From an uncultured Nitrospiraceae bacterium (GTDB lineage: Bacteria > Nitrospirota > Nitrospiria > Nitrospirales > Nitrospiraceae), in contig CAVSTP010000001.1 in NCBI GenBank assembly GCA_963730935.1, positions 32,001 to 96,000 of the forward strand: a stretch of DNA of 64,000 nucleotides. Reading direction: 5' to 3'. The notes under the pieces are model-generated. The model ran no database searches. It saw only the letters and a list, made by a program, of their open reading frames with translations, and had not been told where the DNA came from. A program made the translations under genes and the position numbers. Positions 57,251 through 62,989 of the stretch are shown here, one piece after another. Numbering within the stretch: the first letter of the stretch is position 1; each line of letters opens with the position of its first letter.

Positions 57251-59461
57251 ATGCGGTTGTGTGTGTGCAGTTTGCTGCTCCTTCTCGGCGGCGTGGCCGG
57301 ATCTGCCGTCCTCCCAAGTGAAGTAGAAATCTGCGATCAGGCGGAGCCGTGCTTTCAGGCTGCGGTGCTTCCCAAGGAACGCCTCGGAAAGGCTTTGGCC
57401 AAGGAGCAGGTATTGGCGCTCAAGCTCGAGCGTCTTCGGAGCTTGAGCGAGCGGTTCCCGGATACTCTCTGGGCAAGACGCGCCGGCCTTTTGTCCGGTG
57501 TGCTGTCGATCGAGCCGAACCCTGCCGCAGCCATTCCATTCCTTCGGAGTGCACAACATGATTTCCCGGTGCTGGATGACTACATCCGTCTTTGGATCGC
57601 TCAAGCACAACTGAATCTCGGCGAGACGAAAGAGGCAGCGGTGCTCCTGGAAAGTATCCCGATGGCGGTGCCTGATTCGAACATCCTGGCGAGGGCTGCC
57701 TATAAAACGGGGGAAGCATGGTATCAAGCCTCCGCTTGTCAGGAATCGACGCTCTGGTTTACGAAGGCCGTCGCCATGAATGACAAGGATACCAGCGCTC
57801 CACAGGCGTTCCTGCGCCGCGCCGCGTGCCGGTTGCGCGACAACAATGTCGCTGAAGGGCGCGACCTGCTCCAACAGCTGTGGGTGCGGTTTCCATACAC
57901 TCCGGAAGCCAAAGAGGCGGAAGCGTTGTTGTCGTCCAATTTGGGCGGAGAAGCATGGGTCGTGCAACCGTCCGACCGACTTACCCGCGCACAGGCTTTT
58001 TTAGGACAGGCGTTTCATGCCGAAGCCATCGAAGAGCTGAAAAAATTTCTCGCCGCCGATCCGCATTCCACCCGGCGAGCCGAAGCCAAGTTGAAGTTGG
58101 GCATTGCACAGGTGCGGCTCAAGCAATACGACCAAGCGCGTGAAACGTTTCGCGTATTGGCCAAAGAGGGCGGAGGACCCGAATCCCACGAGGCGGCGGT
58201 GTGGCTGGCTCGCGTCTATCTCCGGCAGGGACAGGGCGACAAGCTCTTGGAAGCCGCACGAGTGCTGCCCTCCTCGTCGCTGTCTGCGGAACAGAAGGGC
58301 CAGATTACACTGTTCGTCGGGATGTGGCTCGAAGACCAAAAACAATTCGACGACGCCATTGGGAAATATCATCAGGTGGCGAAACAGGGCGAGCCTGCGT
58401 CACAGCGGGCGGAAGGCCAATGGCGGGTGGGGTGGGTCTACTATCGGACCGGCCGGTATCGCGAGGCCGGTGAAAGTTTGCGGACGCTCGCTGAACTGCA
58501 TGACAGCGAATTCGAGCCCCAAGCCCTGTACTGGATGGGGCGCGCCGGTGAACAACAGCAACAGTCCGAGTCGCAAGAGTATTATAAGAAGCTCTGCCAG
58601 CGACATCGGTTCACCTATTATTGCCAACTTGCCCGGGAACGTGTGAAGACATTGCCCGTTGCTGACGCTCCTCTCGAAGTAACCGTCGCCTCCGTCGAAC
58701 CATTGAAGGACGGCGAGGCAGCCGCGCCTGTCGTCACGCGCGCCGACATCGCCCAGCAGACGGCATATCGACGAGCGATTGAACTCAAAACATTGGGGTT
58801 GGATGCCGATGCCGCTCAGGAAGTCGCGGTGTTGACGGACCGGTATAGCCGGGACCCAGATGCCCTGGTGGCGTTGTCGACGATGTTGAACGAGGTCGGA
58901 GCCTACCATCAGGCGCTGCGGCTCGCACGTGCACGATTCCGGGATCAGTTGGAGCGGACCGGCGGAACGTTTGCCCCTTCCTTATGGAACGTCGCCTATC
59001 CGACCGGTCTGCTCCCCACGATCAAGCTGCAAGGGGCCAAGGGTGTGGACCCGTATTTGATCGCCGCTATCATCCGTGAGGAAAGCCAATACGATGTCAA
59101 GGCGGTCTCCCGAGTCGGGGCGATCGGGTTGATGCAGGTGATGCCTGCGACGGCAAACAACGTGGCCCAGCGGGTCGGCCTTCCCGCCGTGGGACGGGAA
59201 GATCTGTTTGACCAAGAAACGAACATCCGGATCGGTGTTCGCTATGTCGAGCAGTTGCTGGAGCAGTTTTCCGGCAACCTGGTGTACACCATCGCCTCCT
59301 ATAATGCAGGACCTCTCGCGGTCGGCAATTGGATCGGTCAGTATCGGGGGCAGGGGCAGGACGAATTCGTCGAACTGATCCCGTATCAGGAGACCAGACA
59401 ATACGTGAAACGGGTTCTGCGGACGTACCGCGAATACGTGCGCCTCGGCGGCTTGTCCTGA
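57251..59461 (+). CDS. Soluble lytic transglycosylase with TPR-like repeats (Slt70-like)
   Basis: Signal peptide; TPR helices; IIREES.Y...AVS..GA.GLMQVMP.TA, ASYNAG and ETRQYV motifs. Confidence 0.88.
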   Translation: MRLCVCSLLLLLGGVAGSAVLPSEVEICDQAEPCFQAAVLPKERLGKALAKEQVLALKLERLRSLSERFPDTLWARRAGLLSGVLSIEPNPAAAIPFLRSAQHDFPVLDDYIRLWIAQAQLNLGETKEAAVLLESIPMAVPDSNILARAAYKTGEAWYQASACQESTLWFTKAVAMNDKDTSAPQAFLRRAACRLRDNNVAEGRDLLQQLWVRFPYTPEAKEAEALLSSNLGGEAWVVQPSDRLTRAQAFLGQAFHAEAIEELKKFLAADPHSTRRAEAKLKLGIAQVRLKQYDQARETFRVLAKEGGGPESHEAAVWLARVYLRQGQGDKLLEAARVLPSSSLSAEQKGQITLFVGMWLEDQKQFDDAIGKYHQVAKQGEPASQRAEGQWRVGWVYYRTGRYREAGESLRTLAELHDSEFEPQALYWMGRAGEQQQQSESQEYYKKLCQRHRFTYYCQLARERVKTLPVADAPLEVTVASVEPLKDGEAAAPVVTRADIAQQTAYRRAIELKTLGLDADAAQEVAVLTDRYSRDPDALVALSTMLNEVGAYHQALRLARARFRDQLERTGGTFAPSLWNVAYPTGLLPTIKLQGAKGVDPYLIAAIIREESQYDVKAVSRVGAIGLMQVMPATANNVAQRVGLPAVGREDLFDQETNIRIGVRYVEQLLEQFSGNLVYTIASYNAGPLAVGNWIGQYRGQGQDEFVELIPYQETRQYVKRVLRTYREYVRLGGLS

Positions 59462-59466
59462 CGGCG

Positions 59467-59495
59467 TTGACAAGCTGTGGGTAAGTTCCTATAGT
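59467..59495 (+). promoter_or_regulatory. Near-consensus sigma70 promoter of zapB-zapA
   Basis: TTGACA-N17-TATAGT. Confidence 0.75.
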
Positions 59496-59532
59496 GCGCC
59501 ACAATCGGTGGTGGTAACTCCGGAGAGTGTAC

Positions 59533-59787
59533 ATGGCGTTGGATCGTTTGGATGCGCTCGAGACGCGTATCAAAGACTTGGTGAAGTTGATTCAAGAACT
59601 GAAAAAACAAAATGCCGGCCTCGAGGATGATCTTCGATTAGCCCGGAAGCGGTTGGCCGACGAAAGCGATTCGAATCGGCGTTGGGCGCGGGAACGCACG
59701 GATATCAAGGTCCGGATCGAGAAAGTCCTTAGCGATATCGAAGTGTTGGAGGGGTTCGAAGAACGCAAGGAGGTGGCCTTTGACTAA
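59533..59787 (+). CDS. zapB: Cell division coiled-coil protein, ZapB-like
   Basis: LD.LE.RI..L...I..LK..N..L coiled coil; directly upstream of zapA. Confidence 0.75.
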   Translation: MALDRLDALETRIKDLVKLIQELKKQNAGLEDDLRLARKRLADESDSNRRWARERTDIKVRIEKVLSDIEVLEGFEERKEVAFD

Positions 59788-60076
59788 GACGACGGATGTC
59801 GAAATCTACGGCCAGCGGTACACGATCAGAGGCGAGGCGGACGAAGCCTATATCCGCCGCCTGGCAGGCTTAGTGGACGGGCAAATGCGTCAGCTTGCGC
59901 AAGGAATGAATACTACCACGCCGTCCCGTTTAGCTGTGCTCACAGCGCTCAATCTGGCCCACCAGTTGTTCGAAGCGGAAAAGAAGCGCACCCAGGGCGA
60001 AGCCGATGTCGAACGTCGGATGACGTCCCTCATGGAATCGATTGAAGAGCAGGTCCCCACGTCGCTGTTTCGCTGA
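59780..60076 (+). CDS. zapA: Cell division protein ZapA
   Basis: VEIYGQ.Y.I, Y...LA..VD..M and RLAVL.ALNLA motifs; SD AAGGAGG, TTG start. Confidence 0.92.
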   Translation: MTKTTDVEIYGQRYTIRGEADEAYIRRLAGLVDGQMRQLAQGMNTTTPSRLAVLTALNLAHQLFEAEKKRTQGEADVERRMTSLMESIEEQVPTSLFR

Positions 60077-60082
60077 ATGCGC

Positions 60083-60112
60083 TTGCAAAGGCCGCGAAGC
60101 CTTTGCTATCGT
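60083..60112 (+). promoter_or_regulatory. Putative sigma70 promoter immediately after zapA
   Basis: TTGCAA-N18-TATCGT with TGn extended -10; predicted start ~60119-60121. Confidence 0.55.
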
Positions 60113-60120
60113 GGTGTTGT

Positions 60121-60580
60121 GGTAGTGGTATTTGCGGAAGCAGGTTCATTGATCGGGAATAGGAAGAGGTCAATCAGACGCCGGTAAGGAATCCGGGATA
60201 CGATTACATCGCTGCAAGAATGAATGTGGGTTTGTCGATGCTGGTCCCGTTGAGAGAGTGGAATCTGTCGCAAGGAGTCCTGTTCCTCCTATCGACCCTC
60301 GCTGCCATCCTGGACACAATTGCTGAGTACGTCGTGCCGGCCGAATGGGAGTTCCGTGCCGGTAGACCGGCGGTCGTGACGGTGTCGATACCGTTACGGT
60401 CGGTCAGAGCGCGTCTCGGGCGAGTGCGTCCTCTGAGACAGACCGTGGGAGGTCAGGTGTGGAGACAGGCACGCTCCGCTCTTCCAACAACACGTTCATC
60501 CTTCCGAAGTCGTTCCTCTGGATAGCCGGTCGGTCGGCCTCCTCTCACGCTCCCATCTGTCCCCTTCCCTTTCCGCTACC
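60121..60580 (+). ncRNA. Putative large structured RNA (~460 nt) at the usual 6S RNA locus, or a structured rny leader
   Basis: 5' arm 60121-60191 is colinearly complementary to 3' arm 60513-60580 and encloses about six hairpins; own promoter; no convincing CDS. Confidence 0.55.
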
Positions 60581-60644
60581 CTTTTGAATCTCTGCCGTAA
60601 GAGTCATACGGTGGTGCGACCTCAATTTTGAAAGGGTCCATCCT

Positions 60645-62213
60645 ATGTCGACCTCCATGCTGTTGTACATATTCGTAGGTCTGATAGGCGCATTGCTCGG
60701 AGTCGGTCTCTATGAAGTGGCGCGCCGTTCCTCTGCGAACTCGAAGCGCGCTCAAGAAGCGGACCAGTCACGCCAAATGATCCAAAACGCCCAGCGTGAA
60801 GCCGAAAACATCGTGAAGGAAGCCAAGCTGGAGGCGAAGGATCTGGTGTTCCAATCCAAGACGGAACTAGAGAAGGAACAGAAGGCGAAGCTTCTGGAAT
60901 TCGCCACAACTGAGAAGCGCCTGGTCCAACGCGAAGAAGCCATCGACAAGCGGATCGGTGTCATCGACAAGCGTGATGGCGAGGGCCAAAAGCGTGAACA
61001 GGACTTGATGAAGAAAGAGGAGAAGCTCCTCGCGAAGGAAGCGGCATGCGCCCAGGCGGAACGCGAGCACCGCGAGGCGTTGGAGCGCGTCGCGGGCCTG
61101 ACGGCCGATGAAGCGAAGAAGCAGCTGCTCCAGGAAATGGAAAGTCAGGCCCGGCTGGATGCCGCCGGGATCGCCAAGCGGACGCTGGAAGAGGCTAGAG
61201 AGAATGCCGAGCGGGAAGCGCGAGAAATCATCACGACATCCATTCAGCGCGTCGTGCGCGATTATGTGTCGGAATCCACCATCTCAGTCGTGCCCATTCC
61301 CAACGATGCCATGAAGGGGCGCATCATCGGCCGAGAGGGGCGCAATATCCGCGCCATCGAAGCCGCGACCGGCATCGATCTGATCATCGACGAGACGCCT
61401 GAAGCGGTGATCATCTCGGGATTCGATCCGTTACGACGCGAAATTGCCAAAGTCTCACTCGAGCGGCTGATGCATGACGGACGCATCCACCCCACGCGGA
61501 TCGAGGAGATCGTCGAAAAGGTCAAGGTGGATATCGACAAGCTGATGTATGAGGAAGCGGAGAAGATCATCTTCGAGCTGGGCTTGTCCGACTTCCACCC
61601 TGAGTTGATCAAAGTCCTGGGTCGACTGAAATACCGGACCAGCTATGGACAAAATAACCTCTACCACGCACGTGAAGCCTCGTATATCTGCGGCATCATG
61701 GCCTCCGAACTCGGATTGGACGTGCGGCTCGCCCGACGAGGTGCCTTGCTGCACGATATCGGCAAGGCGGTGAGTCATGAAGAAGAAGGGCCTCATGCCA
61801 TGCTCGGTGCAGAAATCGCCAAGAAATACGGGGAGAGCGAAAAAATCGTCAACGCCATCGCGGCACACCACGAACAGGTGCCGCCCATTTGCCCTGAATC
61901 CGTGCTCGTGGCCGCCGCCGAAGCCTTGTCGGCCGCCCGCCCTGGGGCGAGGCGCGAGGCGCTCGAGTCTTACGTGAAGCGCTTGGAGAAATTGGAATCG
62001 CTCGCGCATGCGCTGAAAGGCGTGCAGAAGGCGTACGCCATCCAAGCAGGCAGGGAGATTCGCGTGATTGTTCGCCAAGAAGACGTGACGGACAGCGAGT
62101 CGTTTCAGTTGTCGAGAGAGTTGGCCAAGAAGATTGAGCAGGAATTGACGTATCCCGGCCAGATCAAGGTGACGGTGATCCGAGAAAGCCGCTACATCGA
62201 GTACGCCAAATGA
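60645..62213 (+). CDS. rny: Ribonuclease Y
   Basis: N-terminal TM, coiled coil, KH domain (MKGRIIGREGRNIR), HD domain (LLHDIGKA) and SAARPGAR. Confidence 0.97.
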   Translation: MSTSMLLYIFVGLIGALLGVGLYEVARRSSANSKRAQEADQSRQMIQNAQREAENIVKEAKLEAKDLVFQSKTELEKEQKAKLLEFATTEKRLVQREEAIDKRIGVIDKRDGEGQKREQDLMKKEEKLLAKEAACAQAEREHREALERVAGLTADEAKKQLLQEMESQARLDAAGIAKRTLEEARENAEREAREIITTSIQRVVRDYVSESTISVVPIPNDAMKGRIIGREGRNIRAIEAATGIDLIIDETPEAVIISGFDPLRREIAKVSLERLMHDGRIHPTRIEEIVEKVKVDIDKLMYEEAEKIIFELGLSDFHPELIKVLGRLKYRTSYGQNNLYHAREASYICGIMASELGLDVRLARRGALLHDIGKAVSHEEEGPHAMLGAEIAKKYGESEKIVNAIAAHHEQVPPICPESVLVAAAEALSAARPGARREALESYVKRLEKLESLAHALKGVQKAYAIQAGREIRVIVRQEDVTDSESFQLSRELAKKIEQELTYPGQIKVTVIRESRYIEYAK

Positions 62214-62989
62214 AAGTCTTGTTCATCGGGGATATCATGGGAGAGCCGGGACGGCGCGCCGTGGCGCGAATGGTGCCGCGCCTTGTCTCCCAGCGCCAGA
62301 TCGACGTCGTCGTGGGGAACGGCGAAAATGCGGCGGGAGGATTTGGAATCACGCCAGAGCTGGCTGAGGAATTGTTTCGCGCGGGCTTGTCTGCGATCAC
62401 TACCGGCAACCACGCATGGGATAAGAAGGAGATCCTGGATTATTTTCCCCGCGAACGACGCTTGCTGCGGCCCGCCAATTATCCGGACGGCGTGCCCGGT
62501 CAGGGCAGCGTGATCGTGCAGGCTAAGAACGGAGAAGAAATTGGAATCTTACAGTTGATGGGGCGCGCTTACATGCCAACCTTGGATTGTCCCTTCCAGG
62601 TCGCCAAACGGGAAATGGGGAAGTTGAGGAAGCGGGTCGCCGCGGTGCTCGTGGACATGCATGCCGAGGCCACGTCAGAAAAAATGGCGATGGGCCATTA
62701 TCTTGATGGCGAAGCGACGGCCGTGGTCGGTACTCACACGCATGTGCAAACCGCTGACGAACAGATTCTTCCCAGGGGCACGGCCTATTTGACGGATATC
62801 GGCATGACTGGCCCGCTGCATGGCGTCATCGGAGTGAAGAAGGAACTTGCCATCGAGAAGTTTTTGACCGGGATGCCGAAGCGCTTCGAGGTCGCCTCAG
62901 GTCCCACGGTGTTTTGTGCCGCCCTCCTCGAGTTGGATGCACGAATCGGGAAGGCTCTGTCGATCGAACGAGTGCGCATTCTCGACTAA
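62210..62989 (+). CDS. ymdB: YmdB-family metallophosphoesterase (TIGR00282)
   Basis: IGDI.G.PGR, NGEN.AGG.G, GNH.WD, RPANYP, DMHAEATSEK, GTHTHV and D.GMTG motifs. Confidence 0.93.
   Translation: MKVLFIGDIMGEPGRRAVARMVPRLVSQRQIDVVVGNGENAAGGFGITPELAEELFRAGLSAITTGNHAWDKKEILDYFPRERRLLRPANYPDGVPGQGSVIVQAKNGEEIGILQLMGRAYMPTLDCPFQVAKREMGKLRKRVAAVLVDMHAEATSEKMAMGHYLDGEATAVVGTHTHVQTADEQILPRGTAYLTDIGMTGPLHGVIGVKKELAIEKFLTGMPKRFEVASGPTVFCAALLELDARIGKALSIERVRILD

Follow-up and report, generated by a model that had tools for sequence, protein, structure and literature searches.

RNase Y initiates the decay of most mRNAs in many bacteria without RNase E and, to our knowledge, control of its own level is known for Bacillus subtilis only. 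Here, we ask what occupies the 568-nucleotide (nt) gap (60077–60644) between zapA and the RNase Y gene rny in a 64,000-nt stretch of DNA, referred to as the window, from an uncultured Nitrospiraceae bacterium (assembly GCA_963730935.1, contig CAVSTP010000001.1, positions 32,001–96,000 of the forward strand). The genome that holds the window is denoted G000, and window coordinates are used for all parts of the element. An earlier note, made from the sequence alone, had placed a structured RNA in this gap and offered three readings: a greatly expanded 6S-like RNA, a new large non-coding RNA class, or a cis-regulatory leader of RNase Y. The setting that it described, between zapA and rny, is correct; a zapB-like gene lies upstream of zapA, ymdB and xseA follow rny, and the last of its three readings fits best. 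We hold with moderate confidence that the gap is a transcribed, structured leader of rny-ymdB, ∼525 nt long, in which a long-range duplex surrounds an embedded small gene. Conservation of the promoter, of the small open reading frame (ORF) and of the pairing is each established.

Long-range pairing between the ends of the gap

The consensus structure was computed with RNAalifold and RIBOSUM scoring from an alignment (A2) of 53 distinct gaps from three Nitrospiraceae genera; four rows had been removed, namely two entries for one frameshifted genome, a sequence that has a deletion after the ORF, and another whose frame is odd. This structure contains 47 long-range pairs and has a consensus energy of -77.7 kcal/mol. 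As the structure came from the same alignment on which it was scored, column-shuffled alignments were also folded: they gave a mean of 13 long-range pairs (maximum 32) and, over 24 shuffles, an energy of -45.4±4.3 kcal/mol (best -52.9), which places the real alignment at z -7.5. In the 53 sequences, 83.3% of cells are paired, compared to 79.6±0.3 in shuffles (0/500). Changes on both sides are seen in 26 pairs, compared to 16.8±2.3 (0/500), and in 123 cells, compared to 49.5 (0/500); the covariation score is 0.231 versus 0.181 (0/500), and further pair types number 81 versus 72.8 (2/500). Slid controls were 40–50% paired.

The pairing is also evident without an alignment. The first ∼100 transcribed bases can pair co-linearly with a pyrimidine tract in each genome, at -63 to -88 kcal/mol; in G000, RNAduplex joins 60120–60212 to 60504–60581 at -63.4 kcal/mol. 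Among 15 lineage representatives, each genome's own arms pair at -64.5 kcal/mol and swapped arms at -56.4±1.3 kcal/mol, a difference reached by 0/20000 permutations. The outer arms alone, in 18 representatives, gave -43.1 versus -38.8±1.1 kcal/mol (0/20000). A swapped-partner test based on halves was given little weight, and matching of G+C may inflate it.

Six helices can be named along the duplex (Table 1). In H1, 6/7 pairs form in G000, and 8/10 pairs show two-sided change in the 53 sequences, including swaps from G-C to C-G (17 GC and 14 CG at one pair). The GGAAG/CTTCC helix of the earlier note (60136–40/60564–68) lies inside H1 and is thus confirmed. H2 forms 5/7 pairs in G000, with 84% of cells paired in the alignment, and is followed by two short helices, H3 and H4. 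H5 is complete in G000 (10/10 pairs), is paired in 91% of cells and changes on both sides at 4/10 pairs. The 5′ strand of H6, with 5/6 pairs in G000 and 91% of cells paired in the alignment, runs from the second letter of the small ORF's AUG through codon 2 to the first position of codon 3.

The rod of paired ends proposed by the earlier note therefore stands as a long-range consensus fold, and most of the individual pairings proposed for it are not conserved. The outermost helix (60121–28/60573–80) is confined to the G000 lineage, and the inner pairings differ from the consensus helices H2, H5 and H6. The local hairpin at 60194–60249 is paired in 55.5% of cells, and the hairpins within 60267–60505 in 50–71%, in the most variable part of the ORF; these internal hairpins all lie inside, or at the start of, the conserved small ORF. 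Conservation of structure in relatives was found with the three genera of the 53-sequence alignment; among the 17 close relatives, the six noted helices show 78.9% paired cells versus 78.3% in shuffles (77/500) and no covariation. As separate candidates, a CCGG/CCGG hairpin was set aside (77% paired, no covariation), as was a CsrA-type GGA loop, the GGA in the loop of that hairpin not being conserved by eye.

The arrangement extends beyond Nitrospiraceae. All four families of the order carry zapA, a gap of ∼0.5 kb and rny, and the synteny was scored at 101 loci with gaps of 424–735 nt; three further loci were left unscored, one for want of a zapA match within 1 kb (G099) and two at contig ends (G012 and G074). 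Gaps in all four families are purine-rich over the first two thirds and have a pyrimidine/C-rich tract near the end. Family f3 (13 sequences) again shows conserved structure: 40 long-range pairs, 85.1% paired cells versus 78.1±1.0 (0/500), a covariation score of 0.315 versus 0.210 (0/500), 18 pairs with two-sided change versus 13.1 (8/500), and a consensus energy of -114.3 kcal/mol versus -76.7±5.6 kcal/mol in 45 column shuffles (z -6.8). Judged from these alignments, the f3 rod appears to be an independent replicate, analogous to the rod of Nitrospiraceae. Genus g2 and families f3 and f4 are without a comparable small ORF; the f3 gaps contain no ORF of at least 50 codons, or none common between genomes. 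Because f3 keeps an analogous rod without a long ORF, the RNA fold is probably the shared and older feature compared to the small ORF.

In genus g2 of family f2, the gaps (L029–L034) are conserved without a long ORF, and their two most conserved islands, GGAAUGA and UCAUUCC, are complementary. The pyrimidine island can also pair with the ribosome-binding region of rny (UUUUCAUUCCCU with AGGGGGUGA); both sides are invariant, so that covariation cannot be judged. As a general proposal, a pyrimidine arm that hides the ribosome-binding site of rny was rejected, with mean z values of -0.53 to +1.47 in six groups, which is the level of composition. From its composition, the C-rich tract was also considered as a candidate Rho-loading (rut) site.

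A small reading frame inside the duplex

The earlier note overlooked an ORF of 95 codons that lies between the two arms and extends into both. The gap was recovered by BLAST in 16/24 genomes of the same genus, giving 17 loci (G000 and 16 relatives) with gap lengths of 536–581 nt. In their alignment, invariant columns follow a three-base rhythm and the indels are of 12, 3 and 3 nt. The frame from ATG 60238 is open for 92–96 codons in 16/17, and 16/17 also have a stop codon (TAG, TAA or TGA) at the conserved column. The sole exception is a metagenome-assembled genome (G006, locus L011), in which a one-base insertion shifts the frame and a second frameshift falls inside rny; both are probably assembly errors, not biology. 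Seven of the eight genomes missed by BLAST carry a diverged ORF of 74–101 codons in the equivalent place, and the eighth locus (G012) stops at a contig end.

The wider alignment points the same way. In 53/53 sequences, the aligned start column holds an ATG, from which the frame stays open for 74–101 amino acids (aa); frame +0 contains stops in 0/53, and each of the other five frames in 38–53 of 53. The ratio of nonsynonymous to synonymous differences (pN/pS) is the lowest of six in frame +0, at 0.59 in the 16 close relatives and 0.73 in the 53 sequences, with antisense frame -1 close behind (0.66 and 0.79, respectively). Variability at the three codon positions is 0.312, 0.269 and 0.458, so that third positions vary most, and 298/409 gap runs in the 53-sequence alignment are multiples of three. 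Synonymous sites are conserved at the 3′ end of the ORF (pS 0.34 versus 0.46–0.62 elsewhere) because its last ∼14 codons form the 3′ strand of the inner helices. The earlier note had regarded a conserved translated ORF as incompatible with its structured RNA; the frame is indeed conserved, and its translation is putative.

The product is an orphan. No match to Pfam or NCBIfam was found for it, even at E≤10, and public gene calls list it solely as ‘hypothetical protein’ (18 matches). A profile search against 1.84 billion representatives gave 42 matches, nearly all of them 82–145 aa long and members of this one small family; the matches of 236 and 559 aa, the weakest of the set (E 2–6e-4), are probably chance. 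With 12 gaps from other families cut into six-frame pieces, hmmsearch with the profile gave a best E of 0.31. AlphaFold2, run with the 53-row alignment, models one helix (residues 6–35, pLDDT [predicted local distance difference test] about 84) followed by a disordered, basic Arg/Ser-rich tail (mean pLDDT 59.5). The N-terminal helix is predicted to be hydrophobic or amphipathic and suited to membranes.

In L055–L097, ORFs of ∼83–137 codons with a hydrophobic start are seen by eye at the equivalent position. Most of the other Nitrospiraceae genera have them, as do four genera of f2 with larger genomes, and they have no detectable sequence similarity to the small protein of G000. Such ORFs in the same place suggest either an old, very fast-evolving gene or repeated birth of ORFs.

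With a coding signal this strong and a product with a predicted membrane-suited helix, the gap could hold an ordinary small protein gene, whose pairing is incidental or serves to keep its own mRNA stable and has no role for rny. We consider this unlikely: gap size and promoter are retained in f3 and genus g2 without such an ORF, together with a covarying rod in f3, and synonymous conservation at the 3′ end of the ORF falls exactly where the start region pairs. An early reading of our own, a small gene only and no RNA fold, had rested on the null result for the rod in the 17 close relatives and was dropped after the swapped-arm, covariation and column-shuffle results.

The position of H5 and H6 over the start of an ORF with a hydrophobic helix, paired in 91% of cells, also recalls hok-type toxin messages. 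In hok/sok, an mRNA silenced by fold-back is activated by processing, and toxins of this type are shorter than 60 aa; the gap element is alike in that 5′-3′ pairing would lock the start of a small ORF encoding a hydrophobic peptide. That it is itself a type I toxin message, silenced until processed, is very improbable. Its product is longer (74–101 aa, with a long basic tail), and the locus is not a mobile one: it occupies a fixed, syntenic place in the chromosome between zapA and rny throughout an order, upstream of an essential RNase gene. A consensus scan of 59400–60800, the only search made for an antisense RNA, found no promoter-like site on the minus strand.

Transcription of the gap and its relation to 6S RNA

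The promoter with which the gap opens (Table 1) had been recognized in the earlier note and is nearly invariant in the 53 relatives, the letters of its -35 and -10 boxes being invariant or at least 90% conserved. Similar boxes stand at the equivalent position in other families of the order. Transcription is predicted to start near 60119. The promoter is absent from the list of our consensus scan, as only 8/12 of its positions match the consensus. An inverted repeat covers the -35 box and spacer; all 8 of its pairs form in G000, and the 53 sequences have 88% of cells paired. It could be an operator for a repressor, or a hairpin terminating the zapBA transcript.

zapA, the gap and rny are all represented among metatranscriptome contigs of relatives (90–99% alike) from soil and rhizosphere. 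Positions 60347–60738, from the small ORF into rny, are joined in a single contig (X7 record 21), and another contig runs from zapA into the gap. Co-transcription of the gap with rny is likely, and no more than likely because such contigs lack ends, strand and levels and may contain DNA. Differences in contig depth, uncovered bins and small word shares were not counted as evidence.

These data bear on a further alternative, namely an independent dual-function RNA of ∼470 nt, rod-closed and stable, that encodes the small protein, with rny expressed only through read-through or from a start of its own. In its favour, pairing of the 5′ and 3′ arms closes off the molecule, a feature of structured RNAs that stand alone, the fold is kept in f3 where the ORF is absent, and contig depth (a poor measure) is 2–4 times higher in the gap than in its flanks in four runs. 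RNAIII/hld of Staphylococcus aureus is a dual-function RNA of this kind, with an embedded small ORF, a structured body of ∼0.5 kb and long-distance helices; it is stand-alone, with terminators and trans targets, and the gap element, in contrast, is apparently transcribed together with rny. The consensus scan of 59400–60800 gave no terminator-like site, and the T-run that follows the rod in G000 shows no conservation in the 17-relative alignment. No second conserved promoter before rny was seen by eye in the 17- and 53-sequence alignments, and the contig described above bridges into rny. The features of a stand-alone small RNA, its own terminator and a discrete transcript, are thus not found, and we regard an independent RNA as possible though rather improbable.

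6S RNA is a non-coding rod of about 160–200 nt whose central bubble imitates an open promoter, and it lies behind zapA in some bacteria. The rod of paired 5′ and 3′ arms and the zapA neighbourhood make the gap element similar to it in outline. Rfam gave no match in the whole window at gathering score and, in the gap (59900–60800) at E≤10, two chance-level rows with E about 9 (Oskar_OES and SMAD5-AS1_2), with no RF00013. The loci of 19 relatives gave no match at E≤0.1, apart from 6S RNA in L001. This match lies on another contig of the genome (G000:C4:492560–492634, minus strand, corresponding to L001:1501–1575, minus strand) and scores 48.8 bits, compared to a cut-off of 46.4. It is limited to model positions 59–134, a near-consensus apical hairpin with the closing stem unmatched, and stands in a ∼840-nt gap adjoining a gene for a Topo VI-B-like ATPase. 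By comparison, the gap element fails the definition of 6S RNA: it is ∼460 nt long, 2.5 times longer, and the part that it encloses is an ORF conserved in 53/53 sequences rather than an open-promoter-like bubble. With no terminator-like site found and an RNA that appears to continue into rny, an RNA polymerase-binding 6S-like RNA of greatly expanded size is, of the explanations considered, the least credible, and we give it almost no weight.

The proposal of a new large non-coding RNA class fares better in part, as the fold is conserved and is not in Rfam; the enclosed part, however, is coding in Nitrospiraceae. The novelty suggested by the earlier note is not removed by the Rfam scan, and no published description of the element was found in the literature on Nitrospira with 6S RNA, RNase Y or a small protein.

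Some further features of the locus may be recorded. The zapB-like ORF is preceded by a near-consensus promoter (TTGACA-17 nt-TATAGT, 59467–59495), scores slightly below the curated cut-off of Pfam ZapB (29.7 versus 31.5) and overlaps the start of zapA by 8 nt. In genus g11 (L043–L053), a long hairpin (CGAGGCUGAGAAG ... CUUCUCGUCUCG) stands 15–20 nt before the ribosome-binding site of rny, at columns ∼619–650 of the 53-sequence alignment (window ∼60600–60618), where G000 has only a short, different hairpin. Inside rny, contig depth jumps to 37–317 at 61250–61400 in 2/4 runs (X1 and X9), with many loose ends; this corresponds to about codons 200–250, around the KH domain, and most likely reflects conserved sequence recruited from other organisms.

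Table 1. Features of the zapA–rny region in window coordinates.
Feature	Position	Strand	Description
zapB-like ORF	59527–59787		upstream of zapA
zapA	59780–60076		
Promoter	60083–60112	+	-35 TTGCAA (60083–88), 18-nt spacer, extended -10 TGcTATCGT (60104–12)
Inverted repeat	60085–60106		GCAAAGGC-N6-GCCTTTGC; over -35 box and spacer; perfect in G000
5′ arm of duplex	60120–60244	+	purine-rich 5′ untranslated region and start region of small ORF; from RNAduplex and consensus helices
H1, 5′ strand	60136–60143	+	GGAAGCAG; partner 60561–60568
H2, 5′ strand	60192–60198	+	UCCGGGA; partner 60514–60520
H3/H4	60202–10		short helices; with 60507–11
H5, 5′ strand	60217–60227	+	AGAAUGAAUGU; partner 60492–60502; 11–21 nt upstream of ORF ATG
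Small ORF	60238–60525	+	95 aa + TAG
H6, 5′ strand	60239–60244	+	UGCUGG; partner 60484–60489 (CCAACA)
3′ arm of duplex	60484–60581	+	last ∼14 ORF codons, stop, pyrimidine/C-rich tract
Putative ribosome-binding site of rny	60630–60636	+	GAAAGGG; invariant in 17 close relatives; start codon 60645
rny (RNase Y)	60645–62213	+	Pfam RNase_Y_N, KH_1, HD; downstream of leader
ymdB	62210–62989		directly after rny; xseA next

A probable leader for the RNase Y gene

Judged by its sequence and position, the element classes as a structured leader of a ribonuclease gene, unusual in that a covarying long-range rod appears to enclose a conserved orphan small ORF. Leaders of this general type are familiar from Escherichia coli, where the rne 5′ untranslated region (UTR) and the pnp and rnc leaders are long and structured and the ribonuclease senses and limits its own message. 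We know of none among them with a conserved ORF. They belong to other enzymes and have other folds, and the gap has no Rfam match at E≤10 beyond chance level.

The closest parallel is rny of B. subtilis, where a leader likewise lies between a dedicated promoter and the gene (PMC10303841). RNase Y cleaves its own 164-nt 5′ UTR and early ORF there, limiting its own synthesis; the most strongly cleaved part is the 5′-proximal 50 nt, which is 76% U and A with a single stem-loop (PMC10303841). The parts of that report drawn on here describe this UTR without an embedded gene or a long-range duplex (PMC10303841). The leader of Nitrospira, compared with it by description only, differs in being ∼525 nt long, G+C-rich and rod-closed, with a 95-codon ORF.

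We propose that the leader would start at the conserved promoter just behind zapA and run for ∼525 nt to rny. Its 5′ ∼125 nt would pair with a stretch ∼280–450 nt downstream, and this interrupted duplex would close off a domain of roughly 240 nt. One strand would consist of the purine-rich 5′ UTR and the ribosome-binding and start region of the small ORF, and the other of the last ∼14 codons of the ORF and the C/U-rich tract behind its stop. The duplex would occlude the start site of the small ORF, so that translation may be limited or self-gated. A ribosome that reaches the end of the ORF would have to open H2–H6, the helices that hold the start site; translation and fold would therefore be coupled. 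A 5′ end buried in the duplex, together with the long leader, may set the stability of the rny-ymdB message, and feedback by RNase Y or RNase III probably acts on the leader, much as the 5′ UTR of rny is targeted in B. subtilis. By analogy, the leader probably helps to set the amount of RNase Y.

Several observations weigh against the view of the gap as a structured leader around a small gene. The folding energy of G000 alone is ordinary and no better than chance (60115–60585; z of the minimum free energy -0.95 on the plus strand and -0.59 on the minus strand, relative to dinucleotide shuffles), and RNAalifold did not recover the rod in the 17 close relatives (-21 kcal/mol). Each structure was counted on the alignment that had yielded it, for which only the column-shuffle and swapped-arm tests control, and many of the two-sided changes may each reflect one event that sets genera apart. 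With the arms as defined, own arms are no better than swapped ones in f2 (genus g2) and f4. The RNA data are assembled contigs, with the limits given above. As for the small gene, its pN/pS lies below 1 by a moderate margin only, and conservation of the protein is poor, with a mean column identity of 41% and M1 as the only invariant residue; for these two reasons, the reading frame may matter more than its product.

A more far-reaching version of the leader reading can be offered tentatively, and we think it rather doubtful in full. Nitrospirales may guard RNase Y with a giant rod-closed leader that, in Nitrospiraceae, cradles an orphan small membrane-associated protein. Translation of the ORF and the rod would gate each other, the leader would tune RNase Y as a sensor of both translation and RNA decay, and the target of the small protein would be the membrane-bound enzyme. 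If true, this would make the mutually gating leader a new class among dual-function cis-regulatory RNAs.

In Nitrospiraceae, one RNA would thus combine a non-coding leader with a young, fast-evolving small gene, the start and end of which are part of the fold. In this element, the birth of a gene within a regulatory RNA, or the coupling of translation to structure there, can be put to the test, and the existence of cultured Nitrospira strains leaves the element open to direct probing. A covarying leader of ∼0.5 kb that occurs order-wide in nitrifiers and is not in Rfam points to an elaborate, undescribed control device for RNase Y.

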